Shown here: piece by piece, positions 744 to 64,000 of the stretch
How positions within the stretch are numbered: position 1 is the stretch's first letter
How the letters are laid out: every line of letters begins with the position of its first letter
IMG/VR virus record: IMGVR_UViG_3300009181_006602
Location: 1-64,000 of that record
DNA length: 64,000 nucleotides
From: a virus
Direction: 5' to 3' (one strand)
Notes under the pieces: generated by a model
Told to the model about the DNA's origin: nothing
What the model saw: the letters and a program-made list of their open reading frames with translations, nothing else
The model's database searches: none
Program-made: the position numbers and the translations under genes

Positions 744-1184
744 TCAAGTTCCGTTTATCGCATGAGAACCTGAAGCTGCCATTAACAAAAATGATGCCCC
801 ATCGCTGATAAGCGCAACGGATGAACCTTGAACGGCAGAAAGTGTTAACTTACTTCCTTGTGAATCAGGAGTTGCACCAGCCTGGCCGGCAAAAACCTTA
901 GTTCCATTTGCTTCTTGAGAACCAGTTAGAATGTGAGCATGTGCTGAAGCTGTGCGAAACACAAATGTTCCACCTGGGACTGAAGATGCTAAAGGCATTA
1001 TCATTGTTAATGCACCAGCACCAGATAGTGTATAGGCTCCAGGACTAACTATCGTTTCAGCAACTGTCTTTGCAGAAACCGGCGTTGTTGGTAATGATGT
1101 CATTGAAACCGTAGAATCAATTTCTACGCCAGAACCTGAACTCTGGACTAAACCCTTTGAATCGTTCATTGTAACTTTTGGCAT
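744..1184 (-). CDS. Putative small virion (capsid decoration) protein
   Basis: S/T/G/A-rich, beta-type composition; lies downstream of the capsid gene. Strong SD AAAGGAG before ATG 1184 (MPKVT...), preferred over the track start 1223. Confidence 0.55.
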   Translation of the reverse strand: MPKVTMNDSKGLVQSSGSGVEIDSTVSMTSLPTTPVSAKTVAETIVSPGAYTLSGAGALTMIMPLASSVPGGTFVFRTASAHAHILTGSQEANGTKVFAGQAGATPDSQGSKLTLSAVQGSSVALISDGASFLLMAASGSHAINGT

Positions 1185-1251
1185 TTTCGTGATCTCCTTT
1201 TTGTTCGCAAGATTCCGAATCACCGGCGAGGTCGGTTGATCACTGATTCGG
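1185..1251 (-). promoter_or_regulatory. Structured 5' leader (hairpin with possible RBS-occluding pseudoknot)
   Basis: 8-bp stem CCGAATCA/TGATTCGG (1215-1222 with 1244-1251). The bulge GUGAUC (1238-1243) is complementary to GAUCAC (1189-1194), which abuts the SD. Confidence 0.4.
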
Positions 1252-1304
1252 GCCTATGATAAGTAATATCAACGTTTAAGATATTCATCTTTGAATAAAA
1301 GTAT

Positions 1305-2735
1305 TTATGAAAATGACAATGAAAATATTGAAGACCCGCATCCATGGATTCTAGAAACTTTCGAGTCTAATACAACTTGTTTTTCTGTCTTTCCATCCTT
1401 CGCTCGAAATTTAAACCTATCATAACGTAGATAGTTATCCGTATACCAATAATCAACAGCTGTTGCGCCTATACAATTAAATCCAGCAAGCTTGTATCCT
1501 TTCCCGTCACCAATCCGTCTATCGACATATGTCATGATACCTTTATAACCATTTTCAATGCACCACAACTTTGCTCGTTTCAATAATTTAGACAATCCAC
1601 CAGGAACAGATGTTTTTAAATAAGTGCTAAACCTAGCTATTTCTAAAAAGCCATCATACTTTTTTCCATGACGAGGAGCCCTTAATGATAAGGCAGCTAC
1701 AATGTCACCTTTTCTATCTCTCAAACCCCAAGTGATCTTTGACTGGACATGCCCAGAGATATGAGTAGAATTAAAGAAGTCTCTTTGTTCTTTTGCACTT
1801 AGCTCTACGACTTTTGTTGACCACGTTTTACATCGACCTTCATCTAACCCAAGCCTATGGAGAATCATAGATTTGCAGATCTCTCTTTTATCTCTCCACT
1901 CATCCTCAAATATCTGACATAACTTTATTCCCTTACCTGAAGTCAGCACAAATTTTTCTAGATGTTTGTTCTTATCAAAAACTTCATCTTGTTTGGCTCC
2001 TTCGCTGTGCCAATACAATCCGTGACATTCAATTCCAAATTTCTTGGAAGGAACATAAACGTCAATCTCTTTCGGAGAAATAACCCTTTTGTCTCCTGAT
2101 ACGGCATCTGGTGCAATTGACTGGACGTAAGAAAATACTTCTAATTCCCAATTAGATTTACCGACCGGATGGCATCTATAACATCTGCTACCCCTTTCAA
2201 ATGCCTGAAGGGTTTTTGGCTGTAACTCTCCACACTTAGTACACTGGAATGTTAGGTATTGTTCTTGCCTAGAGATGTATTGATCTATCAGTGTTATCAG
2301 GACGAACTCAGATTGCCTTATAGATAATCTTTCATTTAATGTTGAGGTTACCAATAGCTTGCTTAAACTAATTTTTTGTAAGGTATCCTGAGTGTGGCGA
2401 CGACCATAAAAAGGATTGCCCGCGCCTGTCATCTTTTCGGATTGTTGCTTGATTCTGCTGTCAGTCTGTTTGGTCTTACCATGGTTCCAAGCCTCGGCTT
2501 TTCCACCACGAGATCCGCCTTCTTTCATGGCAAAATGCGAATGATCCTTACAGAAAGTCTTAAAAGAGAAAGAAACATATCGAACAGGAGCTTGACATAC
2601 CTTGCAAGTTGGCTTTATTCCATTATGATAAACTTTTACCGTATAATCCTCTGAAGATAATCCATGTTCAGATCTGATGTGATTGGTTAGCTTCTTCAGA
2701 ACATCATGCTGAAATCTGCATAATTTACAATCCAT
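1305..2735 (-). CDS. Hef-like free-standing homing endonuclease (Zn fingers, NUMOD3-like motifs, PD-(D/E)xK/Vsr-like core, C-terminal Mom/GNAT-like domain)
   Basis: N-terminal CxxC..HxxxxH; AWNHGK and NPFYGRRHT NUMOD3-like motifs; EIDVYVPSKKFGIECHGLYWHS...IFEDEW core; LEIARF...GGLSKLL...YVDRR...GKGYKLAGF tail. Confidence 0.8.
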   Translation of the reverse strand: MDCKLCRFQHDVLKKLTNHIRSEHGLSSEDYTVKVYHNGIKPTCKVCQAPVRYVSFSFKTFCKDHSHFAMKEGGSRGGKAEAWNHGKTKQTDSRIKQQSEKMTGAGNPFYGRRHTQDTLQKISLSKLLVTSTLNERLSIRQSEFVLITLIDQYISRQEQYLTFQCTKCGELQPKTLQAFERGSRCYRCHPVGKSNWELEVFSYVQSIAPDAVSGDKRVISPKEIDVYVPSKKFGIECHGLYWHSEGAKQDEVFDKNKHLEKFVLTSGKGIKLCQIFEDEWRDKREICKSMILHRLGLDEGRCKTWSTKVVELSAKEQRDFFNSTHISGHVQSKITWGLRDRKGDIVAALSLRAPRHGKKYDGFLEIARFSTYLKTSVPGGLSKLLKRAKLWCIENGYKGIMTYVDRRIGDGKGYKLAGFNCIGATAVDYWYTDNYLRYDRFKFRAKDGKTEKQVVLDSKVSRIHGCGSSIFSLSFS

Positions 2736-2888: not shown

Positions 2889-4766
2889 TCATATTATATT
2901 CATGTCCAAACATGTGACCGTCCCGAAAAAGTCTGACCTCACCATTTTCTTACCGTAGCGAGTCATCACACCCTTGCGAGGAGTGAAATCTTCCGGTGCG
3001 AATATGGTTGGTGTGACGATGAGCGGAACGTAAGGAGCGTAGACATAACCTGTCTCTAGGTAGCTGCCGCCCTTATAACCGACGAGGATCTTGTTTCTGA
3101 CGAAATAGGGATCCTTGTAGATGGTGAAGCGGTTGCTGAGAGTACCGATTGCCTCTGCGCCGATTGTGAATGGCGAACCAACTTGTCCTTCGCCGTCCAA
3201 GGAGAACTTAGGCTTATAGAGCACTGAGGACTCGAGGATGGTTGCGACATCCGGGCCGCAAACCATAAAGTTTGCTGAACCGCGGAGGGTCTTACGATGG
3301 ATTGTGTTGGCAACGTCAATAATCGTCTCGATAAGTGTCTCGTACCACTCGCGAACCGTACCTGTGAAGGCCGGACCGATAGAGAGTGACGATGCGAGGG
3401 CGACAGGCGTTCCTGTTGTCTTGTTGACGAAGCGGCCTGGCGCACGCGACCAATAGTAGTTTGCACCATTGGCTTGTGTCACAAGGTCGCTAAGAATCTC
3501 GCGGTCAATCTCAAGAGCAATTTGCTCAGAGAGAATTGATGTTAACTCAACCTCTGCGTCCATCGAGTGATAGGCGTTGAGGTCTTGTGCGAGTTCTGGT
3601 GACCAACGAGCACGAAGCTTGCGGGTCTCAGCTGTAATCGCGATAGACTCAATTTTGATATCGATCTCAGGAATTGCAGGAGATGGATTCACATTGAAGT
3701 CAGATTCGAATGATGGGATCGTAACTGTTCCGCCCGATGATGAATCGACAGAAAGACCTGTCGAAACGACGAAGGACGCTCTAGTTGAACCGCCTAAGGA
3801 GAGATCTGCAGTGTTGGCTCCCTTGACAACAGTAAGAATGTGAGTTCCGTTAAGAGCGTCTGCCGTAAAGATAGAACCGTTCCAGTTACCACGTTTGTTA
3901 AGACGGCGGAGGTTAAGGACTCCAGAACCACCTTGGTATGTCTCGCCCCATGCTGTTGCGTTCGTCGCGCCGGCAAAAAGTGCTAGCGAGCTAGCTGTTG
4001 TCTTTTCCATGTTATCGAATCTAGAACCTGTGATTGGCACCATTAAGAATGCTAGATCGAGCTGTCCAAGTTCAAGAGCTGTCTCAACCTGTGAATCGAA
4101 ATCCGCGTATCGGGCATTGCTGCCTGAGAACATGGAATCCGACTTAACCTCAAGACCCACTGTCCAGGTATCTCCATCCACACCACCCCAAGCACCAAGC
4201 GACCAGGCGGAGGCATCACTGCTAGGACCTAGGTAAGTGCTTCCAGTGAAAGAACCTGACACTCTTGAATAACCTGCGCCGACGAGATCGTACATACCGC
4301 CAGCAGCTAGAGATCCTGAGCGTACCCCCTTGCCACCTGGGCTATTGTAGATTGATTCGCCGCGTGTATATGTTGAGTCGGCTGCTGATGTGCCTACGCT
4401 CGAGCCGTAAGTATAATCAAGATAGAAGATTAGACCTGATGGAAGGCTCATTGGTTGTATAGAAACGAGCTCGTTGGCAACGAGTCCGCCGAATACGCGA
4501 CGTACGATTGGGAATGCAATGTTGCTAAAACCTTGCATTTGTCCAGAACTAGAAAGGCCGCCGCCGCCACCTGAAAGTCCGCTGCTCTCTTTAAGAACCT
4601 GTGCAGCCTGGTTCTCGAGAAGCTGTGACATAACTTCGCGGCGATTGCCTTCTAGTCCACGAAGTAGGCCTGTGCGGGACCACTTCTCTGTTAGTCGTGC
4701 GCGCTCGGCGCCGACGTGTTTATCTTTGATACCCTGTGCTAAATGTTCAAGCGTAAAAGTTTTCAT
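2889..4766 (-). CDS. gp23: Major capsid protein, T4 gp23-like
   Basis: LLENQ, PIVRRVF...LVSIQPMSLPSGLIFYL, TRKLRARWSPELAQDLNAYH..DAEVEL..ILSEQIALEIDREI, YAPYVPL and F.PRKGVMTRYG are gp23 hallmarks. SD AGGAG present. Confidence 0.97.
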   Translation of the reverse strand: MKTFTLEHLAQGIKDKHVGAERARLTEKWSRTGLLRGLEGNRREVMSQLLENQAAQVLKESSGLSGGGGGLSSSGQMQGFSNIAFPIVRRVFGGLVANELVSIQPMSLPSGLIFYLDYTYGSSVGTSAADSTYTRGESIYNSPGGKGVRSGSLAAGGMYDLVGAGYSRVSGSFTGSTYLGPSSDASAWSLGAWGGVDGDTWTVGLEVKSDSMFSGSNARYADFDSQVETALELGQLDLAFLMVPITGSRFDNMEKTTASSLALFAGATNATAWGETYQGGSGVLNLRRLNKRGNWNGSIFTADALNGTHILTVVKGANTADLSLGGSTRASFVVSTGLSVDSSSGGTVTIPSFESDFNVNPSPAIPEIDIKIESIAITAETRKLRARWSPELAQDLNAYHSMDAEVELTSILSEQIALEIDREILSDLVTQANGANYYWSRAPGRFVNKTTGTPVALASSLSIGPAFTGTVREWYETLIETIIDVANTIHRKTLRGSANFMVCGPDVATILESSVLYKPKFSLDGEGQVGSPFTIGAEAIGTLSNRFTIYKDPYFVRNKILVGYKGGSYLETGYVYAPYVPLIVTPTIFAPEDFTPRKGVMTRYGKKMVRSDFFGTVTCLDMNII

Positions 4767-8158: not shown

Positions 8159-8159
8159 A

Positions 8160-8576
8160 TCAACCTACACCTTCCCAATATGTTGTACCACCGATTGATC
8201 CAGTTAATATAGGCATCATCGTAGAATCAATCATAGTAAGGTTTGCACAGATGCTAGTAGAGATATCTGTAGCGCCATCTCTTAAAAGATAAAGTTCTTT
8301 GACCCTAACGCCTAGAGTAATATTACTTCCACCGTTTACAATAATATAATTGGCTTCGGTTCCTGCTCGGCCGCTGATTCCATTTTCCGTGAATCCAACT
8401 CGTAAACGTTGAGTGGCCGCTGTGTTGTTGTTGATGATTAAAATGTCTTTTGTTACTTTTGGAAAAATATACCTAATAGCGGTACTGGATACTGTGCCTG
8501 ATAGTACCCATGGTAAACCGGACATCGTAAACTCAGCCGTTGTATTCAACCCTGATTTTGGATTATTTAATCCCAT
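8160..8576 (-). CDS. Putative small virion structural protein
   Basis: Beta-rich T/S/G/I composition, located in the head operon, contains ILTGS. Confidence 0.6.
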   Translation of the reverse strand: MGLNNPKSGLNTTAEFTMSGLPWVLSGTVSSTAIRYIFPKVTKDILIINNNTAATQRLRVGFTENGISGRAGTEANYIIVNGGSNITLGVRVKELYLLRDGATDISTSICANLTMIDSTMMPILTGSIGGTTYWEGVG

Positions 8577-10067: not shown

Positions 10068-13000
10068 TCAATCTTCGTCTATAATAAATAAGTCGTTTTC
10101 ATTAGTCTGAGGCGAAAGTTTTTCATTTTCTGATAGAATACTTGAATTTTTGTGTTGTGTCATTTGCAGCGTCTTTGACATGTTTTGAAGAGTAGATTGT
10201 AACGTCATCGGTAGATTAGGTCTAACATAAGTATCATTACGCGATCTCGATTCATTTTTAAACGGGTTATTAACTGCGCTCTTAACATAATCCATGCCAA
10301 ATACATCTTTCATTCCCATACCATCGCCATCAAAGTCTGTCATTTTTTTAAAATCCGGCATATGATTTTGGTGCGTCTTTCTTCGACTACGATCATACAA
10401 TGCTTTCTTTAATTGCGATTTTGCCTTTACTGGCAATTTATCTTTTTCGAAAAGTGGCGGCATTAAGTCAAAGTCAAAATCGTCTTCACCAGACATTAAA
10501 AGTTCCGTTTCAGGTTCCTTCTTTTCTACATCATCGCCGGCGAAAAGATCTTCGGCGCCCTCTTCTCCACCAGCCTCATCGCCACCAGCTTCTTCTTCTC
10601 CACCAGCCTCATCGCCACCAGCTTCTTCTTCTCCACCAGCCTCATCTCCACCAGCTTCTTCTTCTCCGCCAGCTTCTTCTGGTTCCTCTTCGATTTTAGC
10701 TTCTTCAATAGCTTGATCAACTAATTTTTCTTCATATCGTTGTTCGTCAATTTCTTCTATTTGCTCGTCGGTTAAACCCCAAATCATTTTACGAGCGAAT
10801 CGTTTACTACCCATTCCTTCTGGGATAGTACCTGCAATCTCAAACTTAGATCGCCAAATTTCTAACTTTTGTTGTTGCGCTACCGTAGATGGATTTGAAA
10901 GATGAAGATTGAAGTTTTGTAATTCCTCAGAATCAAAGCCGTGAGCATATAAATGAATTATCGCAAGCTTATTTAATTCAGACAAAAGAACTTTTTGAAT
11001 TACGTTAATTGTACGAGAAAATCTTATGTCTTCTTGTGCAAGTGTAGCTTTAGAAGAAAGCATTTCATCATATCCAAGATATGCTCGCGGGATTTTTAGC
11101 GCTGCAAATAGCTTCTTTTGAATGTAGGCTACATCTTCGACCGCCGCGGCATTTTGACCACCTGCCAGCGTATCGATTCTTGTTCCTGATTCGCCGCCAC
11201 GGACAGGAATAAAATAATCATCTTCGATAGAAAGCGGGGCATAACGAAGGTCTAAACGTCCTGTAGCTCTATCGACGACTTGATTAGTACGAAGATTTTT
11301 ACGTTGTTCTTCGACATACATAGGTACATTTTCAGGAGGAATATTTGCGACGTCGATATAAAAAACTCGGCGTTCCGGCGCTCTAACAACGCGATAAACC
11401 AACATCGCATCTTCAATGAGAATTAATTGACGCCAAATACGGCGGCCTGCTTCAATAACTGATGAACCATAAGGAAGAAACATATCATTGCCAAGAAGAC
11501 GAAAATGAGTAACCTCCCAATTTTCCAATACTCTATTTCCTAAAGTGACCCAACGATAGCGAACAGCAAAAGGATCATTCGGATCGTAGTTTTCTTCACG
11601 TTCAATCTCATTTACGGGTATTGGAAATGCGTTAATAACGCCATATTGCGGCGAAACGTCATTATAAAGAAAAAAGTCGCCGTATTTAACAAGATTGCGA
11701 GCCCAGCAACGAAGATTAAACTCTACGTTAAGAGTATTATAGAAGAGATCCTCTAAAATGCTTTTAATTTTTTCATTATCGGAATAGATGTGAAGAACCC
11801 GACCCTTATCATCCTGCGCAACAGTTTCATCTGCGTAGATATCCATTGCAGCCGCAATTTCGGGTGTATTGTGAGAAATGACGGTATCTGTCGCAAAGTT
11901 TTTGTACCCATCTACGGTCAAGTCGTAGAGAGGAATCACTCCGTGGTATTCGACAGAGACAACCTTGAGGTTGTCATAGGTTTGAGAAAACTCTGTATAG
12001 TTCTTGTATCCTCGCTTCTTTAAACGATTATCAAGCACGGTAGCTGTAGTGTCTAAAGAAACTGCAAGCTGCTTCTTCGACATGCCTCTAGAAAAAGTAG
12101 AACATATTCTATCGAAGGTAACTGAATGGTTATATCGAGGATTATTCTTGTCCTGGTTGTCCCATCCTGCATTGTGCCAATCTGGGTTGTACGCCTTTGC
12201 GAATGTTTGGAAGTCTTGATATCCATGCTTTCGTAGTTTACGTTTGATCACATTCGAATCGGTATCAAGAACTTCGCACATTTTTCGAGAATTGAAGTTT
12301 GTTCTTTCAGCAATTTCTAGAATTCGACCGAAAGTGATGTCCTTCCGTTCGGCAGGATTGTTCTCAGACATAAACTTAGAATGATTGGTCTTGAACCTCT
12401 CGATCCATTCTGCATTTTGATCAGACCACTTTGCCCCGTTGATGATCTTCGTGTGAAGGCTTCTGTGATCGTGGTCCTTCATAATGCGTAAGTTTTCTGG
12501 TTTGTTATCATGCTTCGTAAAATTAACGTGATGCACAACCTCATCGACGGCGAGCTCGGAGCCTTTCATCATCTCACCGATGATCCTGTGTTCAGCGACC
12601 CAACCGTTCATATTTGAGCGTCGGTCCATCGTGTATATCCAGCGATAGCCCTCTCCCTCTTCTTTGCAGCCGTTGAATAAGTCTCTACGGTAGAAAGGCA
12701 TCATTGCGTCGCCGGACTTTAGGTCTTCTATCTTGCAGAAAGTACCATCGCGCTTCATGAGGCGGTGATTTGGTGTTCCAGTGATCTGTTGTCCATTATC
12801 AAAAGTAACCGTGTAAGCATGGTCGACTCGAGTCTGTCGAGCTTGCTTTCCCATCGCTGGAACGATCCTACCTAGATTGTGATCGTATGCATAGATTACG
12901 AATGTTCTGTTCGAATCCACCTTGCACTCCAAAGAAAGCTCTTCAATAGTCTTGTATCCACCTGGCACCGCGATCTTTGTGTCCTTATGCAGGCAATATT

Positions 13001-18663: not shown

Positions 18664-18687
18664 AATACTTCTGTGAAGAATATTAAA

Positions 18688-38875: not shown

Positions 38876-38953
38876 ATAACCTATAAACAATTATACTATA
38901 TAATTAAACAATTAAATACTGATTTCATAGGATTGTCTAAGTTAGACAATCCT

Positions 38954-50508: not shown

Positions 50509-50509
50509 T

Positions 50510-51502: not shown

Positions 51503-51507
51503 TAATC

Positions 51508-52407: not shown

Positions 52408-52446
52408 AAACGTTGGCGTGTTTCATTGACGAAGTTGGAGTTTAAA

Positions 52447-54166: not shown

Positions 54167-54870
54167 AAATTAATATTAGTATAGACGATGTTTCTCCGCA
54201 TCCCCTTTCTTCTATACGCGTTATAGAAAGATGTAATGAGATTATATCGATATTCCCAAGCGTAAAGTTTAGTCTCTTTGTTCCGGTCGCCTATTGGCGA
54301 ACAGTTAAACATGGAACTACCACTGACAAACCTTTAAATATCGATCTTTTTCCTGATTTTTGTAATTTTATTAGTAAACTTTCAAAAGAAAATTTTGAAA
54401 TTTGTTATCATGGATTTTATCATGGTATACCTGGTATAAGCGACAACGATGAATTTCAACGATTAAATGCAGACGAGGCTAAACAAAAATTTCAAACCAT
54501 GTTTGAAGTTGTTGATCGAGCAGGCTTAGGGACTATTTTTAAGCCTATATTTAGACCGCCTGCGTGGAGAATGTCGCCAGACGCTATTAACGTTGCTCAA
54601 TTATCAGGTATAGAAATATTAGCTCTTTCTCCAAAGACATATGCTAGAAAAATTTACGACGGCGCAGAAAATACTTTTGATAAAATTGTTTATTATAATT
54701 GCAATCCTCCGTTTGATGAGCTTAACGCTTTTTCTCCTTATACCGAAATTGTCTACCACGCTTGTGAATGGGACTCGAATTATTTAAGCAAAGAAAAAAC
54801 AATAGAATTAAAAAACTTTTTGCAATTACAAAACAATGCAGAATTTTGTTTTATGAAAGATCTTATATGA
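54163..54870 (+). CDS. Polysaccharide deacetylase-like protein (NodB/DUF2334-type)
   Basis: ISIDDV, HGFYH and FRPPAW CE4-type motifs. Confidence 0.82.
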   Translation: MKINISIDDVSPHPLSSIRVIERCNEIISIFPSVKFSLFVPVAYWRTVKHGTTTDKPLNIDLFPDFCNFISKLSKENFEICYHGFYHGIPGISDNDEFQRLNADEAKQKFQTMFEVVDRAGLGTIFKPIFRPPAWRMSPDAINVAQLSGIEILALSPKTYARKIYDGAENTFDKIVYYNCNPPFDELNAFSPYTEIVYHACEWDSNYLSKEKTIELKNFLQLQNNAEFCFMKDLI

Positions 54871-55304
54871 TAATCTTAAAAAAGATTCAAAAGATAAAAA
54901 CGCCGGATGGTTGTATGATTCCCATATATAGAAATTGGGATAATGAAACCAACGAAGGTCATGAACCTAAAATGGTTTATGCTACAATGATAATGTCTAA
55001 AACAGAAAAAGATATTATACTTCACGAACGTAGAATTGCTTATATGACCTGCATACAAGGCGTTGTCCAATTAGAAACTCACGTTGAAAATACGATTAAG
55101 ACAACTTCGCTGTCTTCTAAAGAAGATGTAAACGGGATGATCGACCTTGTTATTATTCCTGCCAATATGCCAATAAAGTTGTCAAATCATGGTGACGAAA
55201 CGGCGATTATCATAAATTGCCCCAGCCCGTCTTGGCATCCAAATGATCCTGACACCATAAAATTTAAAAATTGGAGTGAATTTAAAAAATGGAAAAAAGA
55301 CTAA
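54867..55304 (+). CDS. Cupin-fold sugar epimerase/isomerase (RmlC/FdtA-like)
   Basis: TPDG, ILHERR...CIQG.V and LVIIPAN cupin pattern; directly upstream of rmlB; ATGA overlap at 54867. Confidence 0.65.
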   Translation: MIILKKIQKIKTPDGCMIPIYRNWDNETNEGHEPKMVYATMIMSKTEKDIILHERRIAYMTCIQGVVQLETHVENTIKTTSLSSKEDVNGMIDLVIIPANMPIKLSNHGDETAIIINCPSPSWHPNDPDTIKFKNWSEFKKWKKD

Positions 55305-56263
55305 AAAAACCTTGTCACTTTTTAGTGACAGGCGGTTTGGGGTTTATAGGTAGCTTCTTCATAGAAAAATGCTTGTCTTTAGGTCATAGCGTAACGAACA
55401 TCGATAAGATCACCTATGCTTCGAATACTGATATAAAGTTTATCGGAGAATATAAATTCATTCAAGAAGACATATGCGACATTAAAGAAATACCCAACTG
55501 TGACATTATAGTAAATTTCGCCGCCGAGTCACATGTAGATAATTCAATAACTGAAAGCTTTAACTTTTTGAATTCCAACGTTAAGGGTATTTATAACTTG
55601 TTGGAAATAATAAAGAACAACAAAATAAAAAGTGCTTTGGCGGCTCAAAAATATGCTAGTCCATTATTTGTACAGATTAGCACCGACGAAGTCTTTGGAG
55701 ATATAGCTGAAGGATTTTTTAAGGAAGAAGATAGACACAAAGCCAGCAATCCTTATTCGGCGACTAAAGCCGCCGCAGAACAAATATTATTTGCGTGGGC
55801 CAGAACTTATGATATACCTTTTTTGATGACTAGAACAACGAACAATTATGGTAAAAGGCAACATCCTGAAAAGTTGATACCGAGAGTTATAACGAAGTTA
55901 CTAGCAGGAGAAAAAGCCCCTATTCACGGTAACGGTTCATATATTAGAAACTGGATTCACGTCGAAGATAATATCGAAGCGATATTACGAGTTATCGATC
56001 TTGGAACTCTAAATGAAGTTTATCATATTGCTTCCGAAGAAGAATATACTGTTAATGAAGTTGTCGAGCGAATTTGTAGAGTTTTAAATTTAAACTTTAA
56101 AGACAGAACAGACTATAGTTCAGATAGAGCCGGTGCTGATTCAAGGTATGCACTTGATTTTCAAAAGATAACAAAACTAGGCTGGGTTCCAAAGAGAAGC
56201 CTTGAAGAATCACTAATAGAAATCGTAGAACACTATAGAAATAAAAATGATACCACTTTTTAA
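55289..56263 (+). CDS. rmlB: dTDP-glucose 4,6-dehydratase
   Basis: VTGGLGFIGS, DKITYA, FAAESHVD, STDEV, PYSATK, NNYG..QHPEKLIP, R.WIHVED. Confidence 0.94.
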   Translation: MEKRLKKPCHFLVTGGLGFIGSFFIEKCLSLGHSVTNIDKITYASNTDIKFIGEYKFIQEDICDIKEIPNCDIIVNFAAESHVDNSITESFNFLNSNVKGIYNLLEIIKNNKIKSALAAQKYASPLFVQISTDEVFGDIAEGFFKEEDRHKASNPYSATKAAAEQILFAWARTYDIPFLMTRTTNNYGKRQHPEKLIPRVITKLLAGEKAPIHGNGSYIRNWIHVEDNIEAILRVIDLGTLNEVYHIASEEEYTVNEVVERICRVLNLNFKDRTDYSSDRAGADSRYALDFQKITKLGWVPKRSLEESLIEIVEHYRNKNDTTF

Positions 56264-57338
56264 GATTCATTCGCCCGCAGGCGTCGGAACAAAAATACAA
56301 GAAGTTTTTGATGCAGGAGTTATAACTGAAGGAGAATTCTCTGATAAATTCGAAAGCGAGTTTGGTTCTTACGTTGGTAATTCAAACTGCTCTTTAGTTA
56401 ATAGTTGTACTTCGGCTTTGACACTTGCATATAGATTATCAGATCTAGGTCCTGATACGGAAATTATCACGACCCCTATGACCTGTATGGCAACCAACGA
56501 ACCAGCCCATCTAACAGGAGCAAAGCTGGTTTTTGCTGACATTGACCCGACAACAGGTAATATTGATCCAGAATCAATAAAGAAAAGGTTATCAAAACGA
56601 ACTAAAGCAGTCGTCGCCGTTCATTGGTCTGGTCAACCTTTCGATATTAACTCAGTACGACATGTCGTTAAACAATATAATCCAAATATCAAGATTATAG
56701 AAGACGCCGCCCATGCGCTTGGAGCGTCTTATGAAAACAAACCTATAGGAGGTCATTCTGATTATGTTTGTTTTTCATTTCAAGCTATCAAACACCTAAC
56801 GACCGTTGATGGTGGAGCAGTATGTTCTCTTTTAACAAATGACGACGCCAGGATAAAAAAAATTCGTTGGTTCGGTTTAGATAGAAAATACGTTGGTCCG
56901 CGGTGGGAACAAGATATAACAGAATCAGGTTATAAGTTTCACATGAATAACGTAAATGCTATCATCGGATTAGAACAGATGAAGCATTTAGACTTTATTG
57001 TTAATTCTCATAAGAAAAATGGTAAACTATACGATACAAGGATAAACAATCCTAAAATCGAAAAGCTTCGTCGAGATAGTTGCGCAGAGTCTTCTTACTG
57101 GATCTATTCGTTACTCGTTGACAACAAAGAAAAATTCAAACAACATCTTGCTATGAACGGGATAGCTTCAGATGTAGTTCACGTGCGTAACGATCACTAT
57201 AGCGTCTTTGGAGATTTTAAACAACAAGACCTCAGCGGGACCGATAAGTTTTGTAATAAGATGATTAATATACCTGTAGGTTGGTGGTTGAGCGATGCCG
57301 ATTTAGATAAAATAGTCGATGTCGTTAATAACTACTAA
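56247..57338 (+). CDS. DegT/DnrJ/EryC1/StrS PLP-dependent sugar aminotransferase
   Basis: NSCTSAL, EDAAHA, FSFQAIKHLTTVDGG, GYKFHM. Confidence 0.95.
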   Translation: MIPLFKIHSPAGVGTKIQEVFDAGVITEGEFSDKFESEFGSYVGNSNCSLVNSCTSALTLAYRLSDLGPDTEIITTPMTCMATNEPAHLTGAKLVFADIDPTTGNIDPESIKKRLSKRTKAVVAVHWSGQPFDINSVRHVVKQYNPNIKIIEDAAHALGASYENKPIGGHSDYVCFSFQAIKHLTTVDGGAVCSLLTNDDARIKKIRWFGLDRKYVGPRWEQDITESGYKFHMNNVNAIIGLEQMKHLDFIVNSHKKNGKLYDTRINNPKIEKLRRDSCAESSYWIYSLLVDNKEKFKQHLAMNGIASDVVHVRNDHYSVFGDFKQQDLSGTDKFCNKMINIPVGWWLSDADLDKIVDVVNNY

Positions 57339-57809
57339 ATGTATATGATGATAAGTTTAAGACGCGTTAATAAAAGCGATCTTGGTTTTATTAACACCAT
57401 TAGAAATGACACGTCGACAAGAAGTCAGTTAGAGAATACTAATACTATTTCTTTAGAAGAAACAGTCAAATGGTTTAATGAAAAATCTCCAATTTGGTTT
57501 ATTATTAATCGCGAAATTGAACAAGTAGGTTATATTAGAACTAGCTTCGATACGGGTACTTCTATCTGTATAGGCTGTGATATAGCGCCAGCACAAAGAG
57601 GAAAAGGATATGCCGAGGCAGCATATCGACACTTGATTCCTGAGCTATATGAAAAAGGCTATTCAATAATTTGGTTAGATGTATATCGTGACAATATACC
57701 TGCATATAACTTATATAAAAAACTAGGATTCTATGAAGTCGGATCAAGTTGTAGAATTATTAATAATAGAGAATACATCACGATGATCCACGCGAGGAAG
57801 AATACGTGA
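57339..57809 (+). CDS. GNAT-family N-acetyltransferase (PseH/RimJ-like)
   Basis: QRGKGYA acetyl-CoA motif and N.PAYNLYKKLGF. Confidence 0.9.
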   Translation: MYMMISLRRVNKSDLGFINTIRNDTSTRSQLENTNTISLEETVKWFNEKSPIWFIINREIEQVGYIRTSFDTGTSICIGCDIAPAQRGKGYAEAAYRHLIPELYEKGYSIIWLDVYRDNIPAYNLYKKLGFYEVGSSCRIINNREYITMIHARKNT

Positions 57810-58612
57810 CAGTAGATTTGCAAATAGCGATACCGTGTGGTCCTAATAGCGAAAGATTCGCCAACTTTTTAATTAAGACTATCGAATCCACAATATCGAA
57901 AACATTGAATTATCGTTTTTTAATAGGTGTCAATAAACCTAAAGTCGATAAGACCATAATAATCGGTGACCATCCTGCAAATAAATTTGATTTTATAGAA
58001 GAATTTTCGCAAGAGACAAGTAGCCTAGGCCACGCGCATTGTCTTAATCTCATGTTAAAAAACATGAATTCTAAGTTTGGATTTTTTTTAGATTCTGACG
58101 TGGCAGTTCTAGAAAAAAATTGGGATATTCTATTATTGGATAAGTTAAAAGATAGAACTATCATGATAGGTAGCGAATATCATCACTCTGATGGCAAGAT
58201 GGTGAAAAAGCCTAATGTTATTACTTGCGCGTTTGACATCGAAATCTTTAAAAAACTAAAGCTAAACTTTACGCCTTCTTTAAAAAAGATAGTTACGACT
58301 CATGAAACAGCACAGTTTTATGGAACACAAATTGGGCAATCCATTATGTTGGATACAGGTTGCGAAATTATGGAAACTATCTCAAAAAACGGATATGAAA
58401 CAGACACTCTAAAAATAGTGTCTTCTCGTTATCAAGAAACCGTGTCTGAATTAAAGGTCTTAGATTCTTATCAACGCGGTGAAGAATATCATCTAAACGA
58501 TAAGCCTATTTGTACTCATATAGGACGATCATTAACTAGAGATTTCAAAAAAGACCCTATCGTCAAGGCGTGGAAAGATAGCGTTGAACATTGGCTTTAT
58601 GGGAAAATCTGA
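57806..58612 (+). CDS. Putative GT-A glycosyltransferase
   Basis: IAIP start, HAHCLN and FFLDSD (DxD) pattern. Confidence 0.65.
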   Translation: MTVDLQIAIPCGPNSERFANFLIKTIESTISKTLNYRFLIGVNKPKVDKTIIIGDHPANKFDFIEEFSQETSSLGHAHCLNLMLKNMNSKFGFFLDSDVAVLEKNWDILLLDKLKDRTIMIGSEYHHSDGKMVKKPNVITCAFDIEIFKKLKLNFTPSLKKIVTTHETAQFYGTQIGQSIMLDTGCEIMETISKNGYETDTLKIVSSRYQETVSELKVLDSYQRGEEYHLNDKPICTHIGRSLTRDFKKDPIVKAWKDSVEHWLYGKI

Positions 58613-59231
58613 TCCTATTATACTCAAGGAATATGCCAGATTTCTTGAAAGCGAAATAAGTTTATGTAACTCGGTGGCATTTTTAGGATTTAATCAAGAG
58701 AATTCTTTTACGCTTGGTGTCAAGGCAGATGTAAGACATTTTTATGATGCGCAATTAAACAATTGGGATATTAACGATGACTGGTCATTGAAACAAAATT
58801 ACGATTTAATCGTGTGTACGCGGTGTGCTTATTTCTCAAAAGAACCTTCAAGGTTTATAGAAAAGTGTAAACAACATCTTAACGATGCCGGCCTTGCGAT
58901 GGTCGACTGGGGCTTAGGCGACCATTGGAGATTTAACAACTACAAGGTAGGTTGGTTACGAGATGGGGAACACGAGTTTGCCTACAAACAAGAAAATTTT
59001 TTGTATTCTTGCTTTTGGAATGAAAATCTACGAAAAGACGTTAATGTAGAATTATTTTGGAACCAGATTTTAACAAACAAAAAATTTGGCTACACGTTAA
59101 ATAACGACTTAGAAGAAGTCATAAAAGAAGAGGTGCCGAGCTTAGTCAATTATGACATAAAAAAAATTAAAACTATTTTTCTTTGGCCTGAATCTCCGCA
59201 ACTTTATATTATTACATTAATTCAAAAATGA
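58599..59231 (+). CDS. Putative methyltransferase-fold protein
   Basis: VAFLG, WDI, YDLIVCTR...L...G in Rossmann MTase order; motif I is degenerate. Confidence 0.5.
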   Translation: MGKSDPIILKEYARFLESEISLCNSVAFLGFNQENSFTLGVKADVRHFYDAQLNNWDINDDWSLKQNYDLIVCTRCAYFSKEPSRFIEKCKQHLNDAGLAMVDWGLGDHWRFNNYKVGWLRDGEHEFAYKQENFLYSCFWNENLRKDVNVELFWNQILTNKKFGYTLNNDLEEVIKEEVPSLVNYDIKKIKTIFLWPESPQLYIITLIQK

Positions 59232-59238
59232 GCGAGAT

Positions 59239-60222
59239 ATGACAGCAATGCCAAAACTAGGATTTATTCTTGACGGAATGACATATTTGAAGTATTACAT
59301 TCCATTGATAGAGGAAGCAAACACACGTGGCTTTCACTCAACTTTTTTAATTTCTAGAAGCTACAAATATAACTGTCCTTATGTAAGTGACCACCAGCAG
59401 ATATTAAAAAATATTTGCGATATCTATAATATAGACTTACAAATCCTCGATGAAAAAATCACTAAAAAGCTTGACGTTATATTCACTGTAGAAGGAACAA
59501 AGATACAACACATCGAAAAATCTAAAATCTTTTCTTTGTGTTACTCAACAGACTTTACATTATCGTATGAATCTTATATTGATAACGTAAAATACGCGAT
59601 TATGTCTAGCAAGTTTATTGCGAACTATTATGGGAAAACAAAAAGCAATAATCTTTATCTTGGAACTCCAAAGTTTGATGTCAAGTTAGATGATGCAATA
59701 ATTAGAAATAAATACAATTTAGATAACGATAAATATGTCACCATATTTTATCCGCGTTTAAGAGACATCTCGAGCGCGCCTTTAAGAAAAATAACGGAAG
59801 ATTTAAATAAATTAGGTTATAAGCCTATTCTTAAAACTAGATTAAAAGATCCTATCGCAGAGGCTGATTATCATTTGTCTAAATTTAATTTTGCAGACGC
59901 TTCATGGCATCCCCATACATCGCTTGAATTAATAAAAATTAGCGATTTTGTTATTAATTTTAGTTCCAGCGCAATAGAAGAAACTACAGCATTACAAACA
60001 CCACTAATTAATTTCCATATTAAGCCATTTAAAAAGCCTTTTGAATTCTTATATGAGTCTTCTTTCGTTCAAAATATGGACACAAATTATTCATTACAGG
60101 AATTCAAAAATGCGGTTGATAGACTAACAACGCTTGATTTTTCTAATGATTTCTTTGAAGCTAATAAAAAAATGTTCGATACAAAAGTTTCATCAAAAGA
60201 TATTATTGACAAAATAACATGA
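59239..60222 (+). CDS. GT-B protein, CDP-glycerol-phosphotransferase/sialyltransferase-like
   Basis: LGTPKFD and SDFVINFSSSAIEE...TPLI; adjacent to neuA/neuB. Confidence 0.6.
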   Translation: MTAMPKLGFILDGMTYLKYYIPLIEEANTRGFHSTFLISRSYKYNCPYVSDHQQILKNICDIYNIDLQILDEKITKKLDVIFTVEGTKIQHIEKSKIFSLCYSTDFTLSYESYIDNVKYAIMSSKFIANYYGKTKSNNLYLGTPKFDVKLDDAIIRNKYNLDNDKYVTIFYPRLRDISSAPLRKITEDLNKLGYKPILKTRLKDPIAEADYHLSKFNFADASWHPHTSLELIKISDFVINFSSSAIEETTALQTPLINFHIKPFKKPFEFLYESSFVQNMDTNYSLQEFKNAVDRLTTLDFSNDFFEANKKMFDTKVSSKDIIDKIT

Positions 60223-60779
60223 AAGTTACAGTAATCATTCCAGCCCGCGGAGGTTCAAAAAGATTAAAAAATAAAAACGTGTACCTAGTTTGGGGTATGC
60301 CTATGATTTATTGGGCAATTAAAGCATGCAAGGAATCTAAGCATAATCTTGATGTATGGGTCACAACTGACACGTCAGACATAGCAAAAATAGCTGAATC
60401 ATTCGGTGCTAATATTATTATGCGAGATGATTCTACTTCTAATGATTTAACATTTAAGCAAGTTGCCATTAGAGAAGCCGCCGCTAAAATAGATTCACAA
60501 AAGGGTCAAAGCGAAATTTATATTTCATTGCAACCAAATTCTCCTGAAATTAAATCTATCGATCTTGATGGTGCCATAGATTGCTTATTGAAAAACAATA
60601 AAGATGAAATAATTAGCGTAGACTCAAACTTTATGCAAAATGGAGCGTTTAGAATTTTCAAAGGAAAATATGTTTATCAACAAGATCTATCAACAAATTG
60701 CGGGTTTTATATTTGCAATTTAAAGGACATACATACAGTTAAAGATGTTGAGGCCTTGATAGACGAAAAGAAAAATTAG
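60219..60779 (+). CDS. neuA: CMP-nonulosonate synthetase (acylneuraminate cytidylyltransferase)
   Basis: IIPARGGSKRLKNKN, VTTD, LQPNSP, NGA, DIHT..D. Confidence 0.9.
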   Translation: MKVTVIIPARGGSKRLKNKNVYLVWGMPMIYWAIKACKESKHNLDVWVTTDTSDIAKIAESFGANIIMRDDSTSNDLTFKQVAIREAAAKIDSQKGQSEIYISLQPNSPEIKSIDLDGAIDCLLKNNKDEIISVDSNFMQNGAFRIFKGKYVYQQDLSTNCGFYICNLKDIHTVKDVEALIDEKKN

Positions 60780-60843
60780 ATTTATAGATTGCAGTGCGAA
60801 TATCGGTCAATCAATAGAGCGGGCAATTAAATGCTTTAATTAA
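60763..60843 (+). pseudogene. Remnant of an FkbM-like methyltransferase N-terminus
   Basis: Frame from ACG 60763 reads TKRKIRFIDCSANIGQSIE...stop, one change away from the FkbM motif FIDCGANIG. Confidence 0.5.
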
Positions 60844-60857
60844 ATAGGATTAATAAC

Positions 60858-61547
60858 ATGACATATATTATAAGCGAAATTTGTGGTCAGTGGGGCGGTT
60901 CAGAGAGAAAAGCAGAACAAATGATTCTTCAATCGAAGATGATGGGAGCCGATGCAGTTAAAGTACAACTATTCGACACATATAAACTGCCAGGACAAGA
61001 TCGACACCTATGGGAATATTTGTCGATGAAGAGAGAATGTTTTATTCGTTTGGCTGAGTTTAGTAAGAGATTGAATATTGATTTTTTTGCTTCCGCTTTT
61101 GACGAAGAGAGGTTTCAATGGATTCAAGACGCCAATCTAAAATATAATAAAATAGCAAGTTCATTAATAGAACTTGATCCAGATCTTTGCAGAGTTATGT
61201 TAGATTCTAATATGAAAACTTTTTTCTCTTTAGGTAAGTGGAACAATACAAACTTACCTTTCGAAGATACTAATATTGAATATTTTCATTGCGTAGCAAA
61301 GTATCCGCATACATTCGAAGAAGCGCTTCAAACCTTGCCACAAACTTTTGATAATAGAGTGTCTGGTTACTCAGATCATGTAGTCGGAATAGATGCAGCG
61401 AAAGAAGCTGCTCGCCGTGGCGCAAAATATATTGAGAAACACTTTACGTTAGACAAAAATTCGCAATCTAAGACTGAAGGAGCCCACGCGTGCAGTATGG
61501 ACATGGAAGACTTAAGATGTTTGAGATTATTTTGTGATTCGCTATGA
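60858..61547 (+). CDS. neuB: Nonulosonic acid synthase (NeuB family, no C-terminal AFP/SAF domain)
   Basis: IISEI, GADAVKVQ, SAFD, KIAS, HCVAKYP, GYSDH, IEKHFTLD, H..S. Confidence 0.9.
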   Translation: MTYIISEICGQWGGSERKAEQMILQSKMMGADAVKVQLFDTYKLPGQDRHLWEYLSMKRECFIRLAEFSKRLNIDFFASAFDEERFQWIQDANLKYNKIASSLIELDPDLCRVMLDSNMKTFFSLGKWNNTNLPFEDTNIEYFHCVAKYPHTFEEALQTLPQTFDNRVSGYSDHVVGIDAAKEAARRGAKYIEKHFTLDKNSQSKTEGAHACSMDMEDLRCLRLFCDSL

Positions 61548-62329
61548 TAGATTTTTCTATAATCGTCACAATAAAAAATAGAAAAGAACATTTTTTAAAA
61601 ACGTTTTCTTCTTTGGTTACCCAACAACAACCATGGTCATACGAGGTTAATTTTATCGATTATGGTTCTCAGGATGGCTTTGGCGAATCTTTAAAAAAAG
61701 AGACGATAAGATACACGGATCTTTTTTCAGATTCGCTTAAAGCGATTAATAGAATCTTTATAGAAGACGATCTTAAGTTCAATAGCGGCAAAGCAAAAAA
61801 CATAGGTTCTTATTTTTCTAGTGGGAATTTTGTTTCATTCTCCGACGTTGATGTATTTCTTGGTATGGATTATCATCGACATTGGCTTCAGCTGTTGATG
61901 TATAATGACAAACACTTTTTTTCTTCTCGTGTACAAGAAACTACAGAAAGATGTTCTAGACGATTAACTTCAAAAACCAATTATGGAAATATGATAGTTG
62001 CTAAATCTAGCTTTAATGTTGTGGGTGGTTTCGATGAAAATAATCCGACGTGGGGCGGCGATGATGATGATATCGTTCATAGATTAAAGTTATATGGATT
62101 AAGAGAAATTAATCCTCATGATGTTTATGAATCACATCACACTAGCATTATTCATGATGACGAGCTTAGAACTAAATTTCTTGAATCATCGGAAAAAGAT
62201 TCTATAATATCAAAACAAAAGCTAATTGCTATTTATAATAATACAAGTTTTATTAATCCCAATTTTTTGTTTTTTTACAATGATATAAAAAGTTTAGTTA
62301 AAGTTGAAAAAATATATGAACGTACCTGA
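61544..62329 (+). CDS. GT-A glycosyltransferase with a GT7C-like motif
   Basis: IDYGSQD, KAKNIG, SDVD, VGGFDE...WGGDDDDI..RL. Confidence 0.88.
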   Translation: MIDFSIIVTIKNRKEHFLKTFSSLVTQQQPWSYEVNFIDYGSQDGFGESLKKETIRYTDLFSDSLKAINRIFIEDDLKFNSGKAKNIGSYFSSGNFVSFSDVDVFLGMDYHRHWLQLLMYNDKHFFSSRVQETTERCSRRLTSKTNYGNMIVAKSSFNVVGGFDENNPTWGGDDDDIVHRLKLYGLREINPHDVYESHHTSIIHDDELRTKFLESSEKDSIISKQKLIAIYNNTSFINPNFLFFYNDIKSLVKVEKIYERT

Positions 62330-62936
62330 TGTTTCAATAATCGTTACTAACTATAACTATGCGCCTTATCTTCAGCGTTGTTTAAGAAGCATTTTAAATC
62401 AAGAAAGTATTAATCATGAAATCATTGTTATCGATGATTGTTCTACAGATAATTCTTTAGAGACACTAAACGTTTTTAAAAATGACGTCAAAATTCTTTC
62501 GACACAAACAAATTCTGGCGTAGCAGCAGCCGCTAACATCGGTATAAAAGCAGCCCGCGGACAATTTATAATAAGAGTTGATGCAGATGACTACGTGTCT
62601 TCTAACATGTGCTATTTCATGAAAACATATTTAGAATCAAATCATGATGCATTCTGTGTGTCATGCGATTATCATATAGTCGATAATCACGAAAACTCCG
62701 TACAAAGAAAATACGCAGAAAAAGATCCTATCTCATGCGGTATTATGTATAGAAAAGATCTTTTCTTACAACTTGGCGGATACAACGACGCTATGAGACA
62801 TAGAGAAGAAGAAGAACTTCGAAAAAGATTAGGCGAATATTATCAAATACATCACCTAAAAATCCCATTCTATCGTTATAGAATGCACAATAGTAACAAG
62901 ACAAAAACGTCAGAATATAGTGAATGCAAAATTTAA
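62316..62936 (+). CDS. Glycosyltransferase family 2
   Basis: VSIIVTNYN, IDDCSTD, A.N.GI..ARG, RVDADD, GGY, YRYRMH. Confidence 0.93.
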   Translation: MNVPDVSIIVTNYNYAPYLQRCLRSILNQESINHEIIVIDDCSTDNSLETLNVFKNDVKILSTQTNSGVAAAANIGIKAARGQFIIRVDADDYVSSNMCYFMKTYLESNHDAFCVSCDYHIVDNHENSVQRKYAEKDPISCGIMYRKDLFLQLGGYNDAMRHREEEELRKRLGEYYQIHHLKIPFYRYRMHNSNKTKTSEYSECKI

Positions 62937-63711
62937 TATTAAAAATCGAGGTTTTATGAGAGTCGGTATTCTTGGATATGGAGAGATAGGACAAGCTATT
63001 CATAAGTTGTATAGCAATTCATGCAATAACTTGAATACGCAAATATTCATTAAAGATTTAAATAGAAATGATGAATTTCAAAATTTAGATGTTTTAAACG
63101 TGTCTATTCCATATAATGATTCTTTCAATTTTATAGATGTTGTAAGCACCATTGCGATTGAATCAAATGCAAAAATGTTGATTGTTCACTCGACGATACA
63201 GGTCGGCACTATTAAAAAATTAAAAGAAATATTGCCGAATACAAAAATTGCGCATTCTCCGTGCAGAGGAATTCATCCAAATCTTTATGAAGGATTATTA
63301 ACATTTCCAAAATTCGTTGGAGCAACATCAACGTTAGACGCTGACGAAGTTGCGCAACATTTGCATTTAATTAATATTAAAACTTTTATTTGCAAAAATT
63401 CTGAAACAACAGAATTAGCTAAATTATTAGATACAAGTTATTATGGAATCTGTATCGCGTTTCATGGAGAAGCTTTTAAAATATGCGAAAAAGCTAATGC
63501 AGACTTTGAACAAGCCATGACTATATACAACACATCATACAACGATGGATATACAAAATTAGGAAAACAAAACGTTGTAAGACCAGTTCTTACTTCCCCC
63601 GTTGACGGAATCGGTGGCCACTGCGTTGTAGAAAATGCAGAATTGTTATTAAAACAATTTAACTCGACTGCATTAAATTTGATTGTTGAATATAAAAAGG
63701 AAAACAAATGA
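62920..63711 (+). CDS. UDP-glucose/GDP-mannose dehydrogenase-family protein, lacking the C-terminal domain
   Basis: GILGYGEIG, HSTI.VGT, TELAKL, GIGGHC catalytic Cys motif; 263 aa. Alternative start at ATG 62956. Confidence 0.85.
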   Translation: MNAKFNIKNRGFMRVGILGYGEIGQAIHKLYSNSCNNLNTQIFIKDLNRNDEFQNLDVLNVSIPYNDSFNFIDVVSTIAIESNAKMLIVHSTIQVGTIKKLKEILPNTKIAHSPCRGIHPNLYEGLLTFPKFVGATSTLDADEVAQHLHLINIKTFICKNSETTELAKLLDTSYYGICIAFHGEAFKICEKANADFEQAMTIYNTSYNDGYTKLGKQNVVRPVLTSPVDGIGGHCVVENAELLLKQFNSTALNLIVEYKKENK

Positions 63712-64000
63712 CACCAATTGCGATTGCAATTATCGGACAAGGTTTTGTAGGAGGGTCTTTAGCTACTATTTTTTCCGAACGAGGTTTTGATGTTTATGCT
63801 TATGATAAAGCAGGAAAGTATGCAAAAGGATCTCTACCAAGCCATGGAGATCCAGTTGCAAGTTACCCAGGATCCATTGCAGAATTAATTGGGGATAATG
63901 AGAATGGTGGAACACCGGGGTTTTCTAATGTTTATTTTGTGTGTCTTCCAACACCAATGAATGAAGATGGATCAGCCGATCTTTCTATCGTAGAAGGTGC
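63708..64000 (+). CDS. Second UDP-glucose/GDP-mannose dehydrogenase-family protein (partial, not in the ORF track)
   Basis: Manual translation MTPIAIAIIGQGFVGGS...YAYDK...FVCLPTPMNEDGSADLSIVE. ATGA overlap with the previous gene; runs off the window. Confidence 0.88.
   Translation, partial: MTPIAIAIIGQGFVGGSLATIFSERGFDVYAYDKAGKYAKGSLPSHGDPVASYPGSIAELIGDNENGGTPGFSNVYFVCLPTPMNEDGSADLSIVEG

Follow-up and report, generated by a model that had tools for sequence, protein, structure and literature searches.

The virus contig IMGVR_UViG_3300009181_006602 is 90,524 bp long, and its first 64 kb, which we call the window (64,000 nucleotides), encode T4-type head proteins, baseplate/fiber-module proteins, and a cluster of genes for glycan synthesis. 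We analyzed the tripeptide [ST]GS (Ser or Thr, then Gly, then Ser), which an earlier note on this DNA had reported to be confined to putative outer virion proteins and had proposed as a glycosylation sequon. [ST]GS, for which hydrophobic-[S/T]-[G, sometimes A]-S is the more precise form, is a true short linear motif under selection, and it acts at the protein level. It marks outward-facing virion proteins (fibers, outer baseplate, sheath, and a capsid insertion) of a T4-like lineage.

Virion and glycan modules of the contig

Pfam searches of the window identified the head genes Gp23 (E = 1.8e-76), Portal_T4 (1.2e-69), Peptidase_S77 (the gp21 prohead protease, 1.2e-26), and Terminase_6N, and PHROGs identified a gp6-like baseplate wedge in the contig (phrog_10646). 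The features of a far-T4 myovirus are present: a gp23-type major capsid protein (MCP), a gp20 portal, a gp21 protease, a T4-type large terminase, and the gp6-like wedge. The nearest cultured matches of the MCP are Flavobacterium phage immuto (47% identity) and Microcystis phage Mel-JY01, and orthologs were found in both of these and in Rhodothermus phage RM378. Uncultured relatives were taken from IMG/VR, where at least 627 stretches matched and the best 80 were kept. The close IMG/VR relative G008 is a complete genome of 297,894 bp with terminal repeats, so the contig represents about one third of a jumbo T4-like phage genome.

The [ST]GS counts given previously for the window are all exact. 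Eight of the 63 open reading frames (ORFs) carry 26 sites in 2,855 amino acids (aa), two of them in the partial ORF at 1-324, and the other 55 ORFs (17,720 aa) carry none. Shuffling the residues within each protein gave expectations of 4.67 and 9.46 sites for the two sets, respectively, and neither observed value was reached in any of 2,000 shuffles. The motif-free set still contains 119 [ST]G and 75 GS dipeptides.

Apart from the partial ORF, the motif-bearing ORFs are on the minus strand. In the head module, a 159-aa ORF (744-1223) has three sites (aa 29, 100, and 151; 0.61 expected) and no match in Pfam or PHROGs, and a 138-aa ORF (8160-8576) has one (0.27 expected). The baseplate/fiber module contains an 834-aa protein (23222-25726, five sites) with a C-terminus that matches immuto gp105, a member of the baseplate-fiber block; a 419-aa protein (25766-27025, six sites) homologous to immuto gp106 and gp105 and to ORFs of RM378 and Mel-JY01; and a 235-aa homolog of immuto gp107 (27055-27762, one site). 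For the 419-aa protein, the AlphaFold2 (AF2) model has a mean confidence (pLDDT) of 63; Foldseek found no PDB match at E <=0.001, just weak baseplate rows, and PDB sequences searched with a profile yielded no hit. A further 337-aa ORF (36411-37424) has three sites where 0.26 are expected; the G008 ortholog retains none of them (0/3) at aligned positions.

The MCP gene (2889-4766, minus strand) contributes five sites, all between aa 150 and 248 in a central insertion. The earlier note placed these sites in a variable insertion and away from the conserved gp23 core. Their position holds, as the best stretch of the Pfam Gp23 match is aa 346-614, but the variability does not extend to every site: SGS150 is found without exception in all 72 MCPs compared (that of the target and those of 71 relatives). 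At site 214, [ST]G[ST] is retained, and the others vary. Across the 72 proteins, sites of the insertion fall in 25 alignment columns, 19 of them rare, with a mean of 3.32 sites per protein compared to 0.68 in shuffles and 0.47-1.0 for four permuted-order controls. Sites are therefore recurrently gained in a hypervariable exposed region, with two conserved and the rest turning over. The AF2 model of the MCP is poor overall (pLDDT 51.5), and the insertion domain alone is usable (pLDDT 80-89); in it, the sites are at strand starts or helix N-caps.

Three large Ser-rich ORFs of 713, 1,335, and 808 aa (27826-36398, minus strand) have no [ST]GS, as had been stated before, where about 2.2 would be expected. 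Their G008 orthologs also lack it. No family match was found for them in Pfam, PHROGs, or Atlas (the Atlas score of the 1,335-aa ORF, at most 0.78, is uninformative). These could be internal or ejected proteins.

Next to the virion genes, the earlier note had described a large cluster of soluble glycan enzymes. By Pfam and NCBIfam this cluster occupies 46582-64000 on the plus strand and extends to about position 67961 of the contig, and no [ST]GS site occurs in it. At least 11 of its ORFs are glycosyltransferases (GTs) of families GT2 or GT4, including a 650-aa GT2 protein (46582-48534). It also encodes a GDP-mannose 4,6-dehydratase (Gmd), a dTDP-glucose-dehydratase-like enzyme, a PseC/LegC-like aminotransferase, a GNAT protein, a NeuB-like protein, a cytidylyltransferase, methyltransferases, and nucleotide-sugar dehydrogenases. 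That the cluster is soluble was upheld by a Kyte-Doolittle scan, which gave single hydrophobic segments only and no predicted multi-pass membrane protein. Flippase, polymerase, and lipid-carrier transferase families had no match in the cluster (Pfam and NCBIfam), and no oligosaccharyltransferase or flippase family was found in the contig (Pfam). On the same strand, the cluster continues into a sigma-factor-like gene and then baseplate/fiber genes.

Just Gmd (450 against 415) and one nucleotide-sugar dehydrogenase (63708-64649, subfamily model TIGR03026) score above curated NCBIfam cut-offs. All of the nonulosonic-type enzymes are below theirs (PseC 226 bits with a cut-off of 423, PseH 32 with 93, NeuB 101 with 400, and PseF 84 with 206). 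The cytidylyltransferase (186 aa) and the NeuB-like protein (229 aa), both at 60219-61547 of the window (plus strand), are much shorter than the family models. Because these two ORFs are short and below the cut-offs, a working nonulosonic-acid pathway is not established. Two adjacent plus-strand ORFs, at 62920-63711 of the window and 63708-64649 of the contig, both match nucleotide-sugar dehydrogenase, the first with the central part alone, which looks like a duplication or a split gene.

A pair of GT4 genes is located at 65543-67961 of the contig, just outside the window, with the first at 65543-66793, and adjoins a gene for a PD-(D/E)XK nuclease. Right after the pair, also outside the window, a 106-aa ORF (67958-68278 of the contig) has a strongly hydrophobic N-terminal segment (aa 1-23) and is kept in G008.

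Enrichment, lineage, and conservation of the tripeptide

The split of the window into motif-bearing and motif-free ORFs is defined by the motif itself, and we therefore re-partitioned the whole contig by gene module, into 30 structural-module ORFs and 49 other ORFs (13,444 aa). The structural modules hold 57 [ST]GS sites where 21.5 are expected, and the other modules hold none where 6.05 are expected. Sites occur in 16 ORFs, most of them not detectably related to each other; 14 structural-module ORFs (6,849 aa) are also free of the motif, with 4.6 sites expected. When the fiber-like repeat protein is left out, the structural modules still have 50 sites compared to 15.4 in shuffles (z = 8.4), so the excess survives correction for Ser/Gly composition. 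It also depends on residue order, as the permuted tripeptides G[ST]S, GS[ST], [ST]SG, and S[ST]G each occur 20-28 times in the same proteins. The structural proteins of T4 have 9 [ST]GS sites compared to 12-21 for the permuted forms, and T4 shows no difference between structural (9 sites) and non-structural (7 sites) proteins.

Bases 64001-90524, which are outside the window, provide an out-of-sample comparison. Ten tail-module ORFs in this part have 31 sites (12.9 expected), or 24 sites (7.2 expected, P = 6e-7) without the repeat protein, and seven non-structural ORFs have 0 (0.6 expected). The repeat protein is a fiber-like ORF at 86475-90524 of the contig that runs off the contig end and in which a 111-aa unit, always with ..NAGSGS[IL]..., is repeated in tandem at least seven times; copies of this single unit account for 7 of the 57 contig sites.

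Sites are scattered over the length of the proteins, at internal positions. A hydrophobic residue commonly precedes them, as the earlier note had remarked, occupying position -2 in 32 and position -1 in 27 of the 57 sites (background fraction 0.31). More broadly, the flanks at -2, -1, and +1 show an excess of hydrophobic residues and few charged ones. At the DNA level, the 57 sites are encoded by 38 distinct 9-mers with background codon usage, which rules out an origin at the DNA level, for example in a site for restriction or methylation. Composition alone is ruled out by the shuffles and the permuted-order controls, and paralogy alone by the small share of sites (7 of 57) that are copies of one repeat.

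Other short motifs behaved differently. Neither [ST][GA]xT (observed/expected 0.92) nor N-x-[ST] (1.05) is enriched in structural ORFs, and D[ST][AILVMT] is not enriched in structural (1.10) or other ORFs (0.90). A mild enrichment was found for [ST]AS (1.77). Ranked by structural bias under the module partition, SGS is first and TGS eighth among 1,185 tripeptides. By a G statistic for heterogeneity among proteins, a measure too noisy for use, TGS ranks sixth and SGS eighth of 1,185.

To place the motif among phages, one ORF caller was applied to 12 phage genomes. Observed/expected [ST]GS was 2.07 for the target contig, 1.95 for G008, 2.42 for immuto, 2.68 for RM378, and 2.37 for Mel-JY01; the last is no higher than its permuted tripeptides (ratio 0.97). 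Intermediate values were found for cyanophages S-MbCM100 (1.38) and P-SSM2 (1.31), pelagiphage HTVC008M (1.45), and Flavobacterium siphovirus 11b (1.40). The ratios were 0.81 for T5, 0.80 for phiKZ, and 0.69 for T4, and in these three the motif is below both its expectation and its own permutations (0.54-0.82). The excess is lineage-specific and not generic to phages, being found in the target, its IMG/VR relatives, immuto, and RM378.

The location of the sites within the virion is clearest in immuto, where we used the depositors' annotation to define exposed and internal classes. Exposed parts (fibers, spikes, sheath, outer baseplate, and MCP) have 79 sites compared to 21.3 expected, while internal parts (portal, scaffold, protease, tube, hub, and tape measure) have 1 compared to 2.3, with 0 in the tail tube. 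G008 has nine further proteins with at least three sites, of which seven could be checked, and all seven match sheath, fiber, collagen-like, or baseplate families. The earlier claim of enrichment on outward-facing virion proteins is thus real, order-specific, conserved, and lineage-wide. A tblastn search with an immuto fiber module for motif-bearing fibers in other phages matched immuto itself alone.

Sites are also conserved by position. Between the target and G008, 18 of 41 sites at aligned positions are kept compared to 6 of 46 permuted controls (Fisher P = 0.0017). Larger ortholog sets were available from IMG/VR for the 834-aa and 419-aa proteins (70-77) and the MCP (71), over which mean site retention was 0.56 compared to 0.18 for controls; retention of [ST]G[^ST], at 0.52, is close to that of the motif. 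For the 834-aa and 419-aa proteins, nine of the 11 sites are each retained by 49-91% of orthologs, including four of the five in the 834-aa protein that are kept in 83-91% of its 70 orthologs. Each ortholog has a mean of 6.1 sites for the 834-aa protein (1.2 expected) and 3.8 for the 419-aa protein (77 orthologs; 0.73 expected). At several sites SGS swaps with SAS or SSS, with both flanking Ser invariant and the middle residue Gly, Ala, or Ser. In AF2 models of the 419-aa protein and the MCP insertion, the sites fall in differing local structure (a loop before a strand, a helix N-cap, and an inter-helix loop), a mixture that, as modeled, does not look like one fold element.

The second half of the earlier claim, that [ST]GS is avoided outside virion proteins, failed in the relatives. 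G008 orthologs of the target's motif-free genes carry 5 sites where 4.57 are expected (in terminase, SbcC, helicase, GroEL-like protein, and GDP-mannose dehydratase), and the remaining 348 G008 proteins, with structural orthologs and the nine proteins with at least three sites set aside, carry 51 where 51.4 are expected. Non-structural proteins of immuto have 11 sites (16.2 expected). For the zero in the non-structural ORFs of the contig, P is only 0.002-0.015, and given this value we read it as a fluctuation. Since the pattern of "never elsewhere" seen in the window is absent in relatives, we do not use it as evidence.

It is very improbable that the motif as a whole is a chance finding or a by-product of Ser/Gly-rich composition that was picked post hoc. 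The motif was indeed chosen after looking, the probability for SGS alone among 1,185 tripeptides (P = 1e-4) is borderline once corrected, the Mel-JY01 excess equals that of its permuted tripeptides, and the non-structural zero is statistically modest. Against this, the excess over shuffles is large, it is order-dependent and positionally conserved, and it is replicated in the out-of-sample 26.5 kb, in G008, in immuto, and in RM378. For the enrichment, a chance explanation is already contradicted; it stands for the claimed avoidance alone.

Candidate readers of the motif

A trans-acting reader is suggested because the motif is lineage-specific, order-dependent, conserved yet regenerated, and present on exposed proteins of many folds. 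The leading candidate for this reader is a glycosyltransferase: the GT4 pair, with its neighboring nuclease, are the sole lineage-restricted enzymes found to track the motif. Orthologs of the first GT4 (65543-66793) and its partner occur in G008, immuto (at 49172-51927 of its record), Mel-JY01, RM378, and the uncultured phage LR756508. G008 orthologs are 69% and 56% identical for the GT4 pair and 56% identical for the 650-aa GT2 protein. No GT2 or GT4 was found at all in T4 or S-MbCM100. The content of the cluster is variable among relatives, and among the long relative contigs, all 14 that span the relevant region have GTs. Six of 20 long relative contigs have no GT, all of them fragments that are 17-29% complete, and G002 (65% complete) has one GT2.

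Our leading, although tentative, reading from these sequence comparisons is that the motif may be a glycosylation sequon read by a soluble glycosyltransferase of the phage. Late in infection, in the cytoplasm, the lineage-conserved GT4 pair would put the first sugar on the motif serine, and in the jumbo clade the 650-aa GT2 protein may assist it. Activated sugars and the extension of the glycan would be provided by the variable rest of the cluster, and the glycan would coat the exposed parts of the particle. Generalized to far-T4 phages of aquatic Bacteroidota and their relatives, with hydrophobic-[S/T]-[G/A]-S as a true O-glycosylation sequon, the GT4 pair as its reader, a diversifying cluster that extends the glycan, and coated fibers, outer baseplate, sheath, and capsid insertions, the scheme is one that we would still regard as rather doubtful.

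Several observations weigh against a sequon. A short motif enriched beyond composition on its targets and conserved there is what a sequon would leave, and this was found; depletion in non-target proteins of the same compartment was seen in the contig (0 compared to 6.05) but not in G008 or immuto. A cytoplasmic enzyme that reads this sequon should also modify non-virion proteins because the bare tripeptide occurs there. Known O-glycosylation sites are typically in polar, flexible segments, and the hydrophobic, charge-poor flanks described above thus count against this reading, as does the Mel-JY01 excess that does not exceed its permutations. The GT4 pair appears to track the motif-rich lineage as one phylogenetic contrast only. 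P-SSM2 has GT genes, and its ratio of 1.31 is no higher than those of relatives in the cyanophage/pelagiphage clade without GTs (1.38 and 1.45), and Pontimonas phage phiPsal1 has a distant GT4 homolog beside its capsid gene with no motif excess (6 sites compared to 8.0 expected). In NCBIfam and PDB sequence searches, no GT of the contig matches the known protein-glycosyltransferase families (GtfA, HMW1C/NGT, TibC, Maf, or GmaR-like). The best matches of the GT4 pair in these searches are generic (MshA, BshA, and TreT, E 1e-7 to 1e-11), and the 650-aa GT2 protein has no NCBIfam match. A full-text search of the literature found nothing on [ST]GS or an internal tripeptide sequon, or on glycosylated virions of this lineage. 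The attachment of a sugar, the chain-starting enzyme, the acceptor serine, and the role of a coat are all matters that we infer. In addition, many of the immuto and G008 sites are in repetitive fiber modules or in beta-solenoid regions of YadA-head-like and bactofilin-like type, and a turn that recurs there could account for these sites.

This last point leads to an explanation that we consider possible, and almost as likely as a sequon, in which the motif is structural and is not modified. It would be a loop, turn, or capping element of beta-rich fiber, beta-solenoid, and outer-domain families, spread by shared ancestry and shuffling of tail modules. The hydrophobic flanks at -2, -1, and +1 agree with such a role, as do the strand starts and helix N-caps at which sites are found in AF2 models. 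Gly positions are generally conserved, with [ST]G[^ST] retained nearly as well as the motif itself. Seven of the target sites come from one tandem repeat, immuto gp101-gp103 share modules of SGSF..GDGSGL type, and the motif-rich proteins of G008 include YadA-head-like, bactofilin-like, and collagen-like regions. Other proteins of the relatives show no avoidance, and the trait is graded, with aquatic T4-like phages intermediate at 1.3-1.45. However, a general turn propensity should also act in T4, T5, and phiKZ, where the motif is instead below expectation and below its permutations. Local structure at the sites is heterogeneous in the models, at several sites the Gly is less conserved than the Ser on either side of it (SGS/SAS/SSS), new sites arise at differing positions in the hypervariable MCP insertion, and most of the 16 target ORFs with sites are without detectable kinship.

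A reader other than a glycosyltransferase is, in our estimate, unlikely. It could be an enzyme for another serine modification (phosphorylation, acylation, or ADP-ribosylation), or an assembly factor or chaperone that recognizes outer virion proteins. All of the arguments for a selected linear motif apply to it equally, nothing links the motif specifically to sugar, and the phage does encode a GroEL-like protein, ClpP, and methyltransferases. Nevertheless, no suitably distributed kinase, acyltransferase, or ADP-ribosyltransferase was found in the 90.5-kb contig (about two thirds of the genome lies outside it), and the lineage-restricted enzymes that track the motif are the GT4 pair and the neighboring nuclease only.

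The glycosylation reading can be compared with several known systems. Virion O-glycosylation by phage-encoded glycosyltransferases has reportedly been described for mycobacteriophages by Freeman and colleagues (Cell Host Microbe, 2023). That system resembles the one considered here in having the phage's own soluble GT genes (GT2/GT4 in at least 11 ORFs here), structural proteins of the particle as proposed acceptors, and a proposed role as a shield. The glycans are reported there, whereas here they are predicted from genes, and the cluster of the contig is far larger. Cytoplasmic glycosylation at many sites is also known for bacterial adhesins, through HMW1C on N-X-S/T of HMW1, TibC/AAH on beta-helices of the AIDA-I type, and GtfA/B on serine-rich repeat proteins; GtfA, an enzyme of GT4 type, modifies Ser where the surrounding residues are small. 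The likeness lies in a soluble GT and in many sites on long beta-rich surface fibers before assembly or export, but the GTs of the contig match none of those families in NCBIfam or among PDB sequences. Mimivirus fibrils and the chlorovirus capsid are glycosylated by virus-encoded enzymes, the latter at an atypical sequon. Like these viruses, the phage has a large cluster of nucleotide-sugar and GT genes of its own, independent of a host secretory route, although theirs are eukaryotic hosts and a different virus realm; the chlorovirus glycosyltransferase B736L gave a weak, generic GT4 match (E = 3e-5). The general O-glycosylation of Bacteroidota uses the motif D-[ST]-[AILVMT] and periplasmic transfer. 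It differs in that D[ST][AILVMT] is not enriched here (1.10 and 0.90, as above) and that the contig has no flippase or oligosaccharyltransferase family.

According to a study of large aquatic phages (PMC12619734), mycobacteriophage glycans are on the C-termini of capsid and tail-tube subunits. By that description, the candidate sites of the contig differ in being internal and in a hydrophobic context, and in being on fibers, baseplate, sheath, and a capsid insertion, with the tube of immuto motif-free. The same study describes "Moraphages", large aquatic phages with predicted Bacteroidota hosts, with a core set that includes several GT orthogroups, ClpP/ClpA, a sigma factor, and gp6/gp25/sheath, and with a Rhodothermus phage in the MCP tree (PMC12619734). 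These are large T4-related aquatic phages, and the contig resembles that lineage. Virion glycosylation is raised there as one possible role of the GTs, in passages that name no motif or sequon (PMC12619734).

If the motif is a sugar tag, it would provide a predictable address for phage virion glycosylation, which is so far known from mycobacteriophages, and phages of Gram-negative hosts would have their first defined sequon for glycosylation of the virion. Glycosylated surfaces could then be read from sequence across widespread large aquatic phages, which matters for host range, for the stability of particles, and for how they escape recognition. Two of the motif-rich phages, immuto and RM378, are in culture, which makes the idea testable now. 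If glycosylation is not the cause, a lineage-specific conserved tripeptide on exposed virion proteins across unrelated folds needs another explanation.

Other genes of the window

Several further genes of the window, all on the minus strand, were noted. The portal ORF (10068-13238) is 1,056 aa long; before its Portal_T4 domain, at aa 131-457, it carries an intein splicing domain together with an HNH_3 endonuclease. The G008 ortholog of this ORF is of similar size (1,042 aa). Just downstream of the MCP gene are an HNH endonuclease (361-708) and a NUMOD3/HNH homing endonuclease (1305-2735, 476 aa), both kept in G008. SbcC-like and SbcD-like proteins are encoded as separate ORFs at 16075-19335 and correspond to one ORF in G008 (1,046 aa) and in Mel-JY01 (1,066 aa). 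The ORF at 22711-23121 has a Pfam match to the N-terminal domain of a TnsA-like endonuclease, and BLAST also matches it to the T4 ORF at 76885-77337 (gene 4, head completion) and to one cyanophage ORF. Finally, a PhoH-like ATPase (37460-38890, 476 aa) has a PIN domain fused at its N-terminus, and immuto has the PhoH part alone (228 aa).

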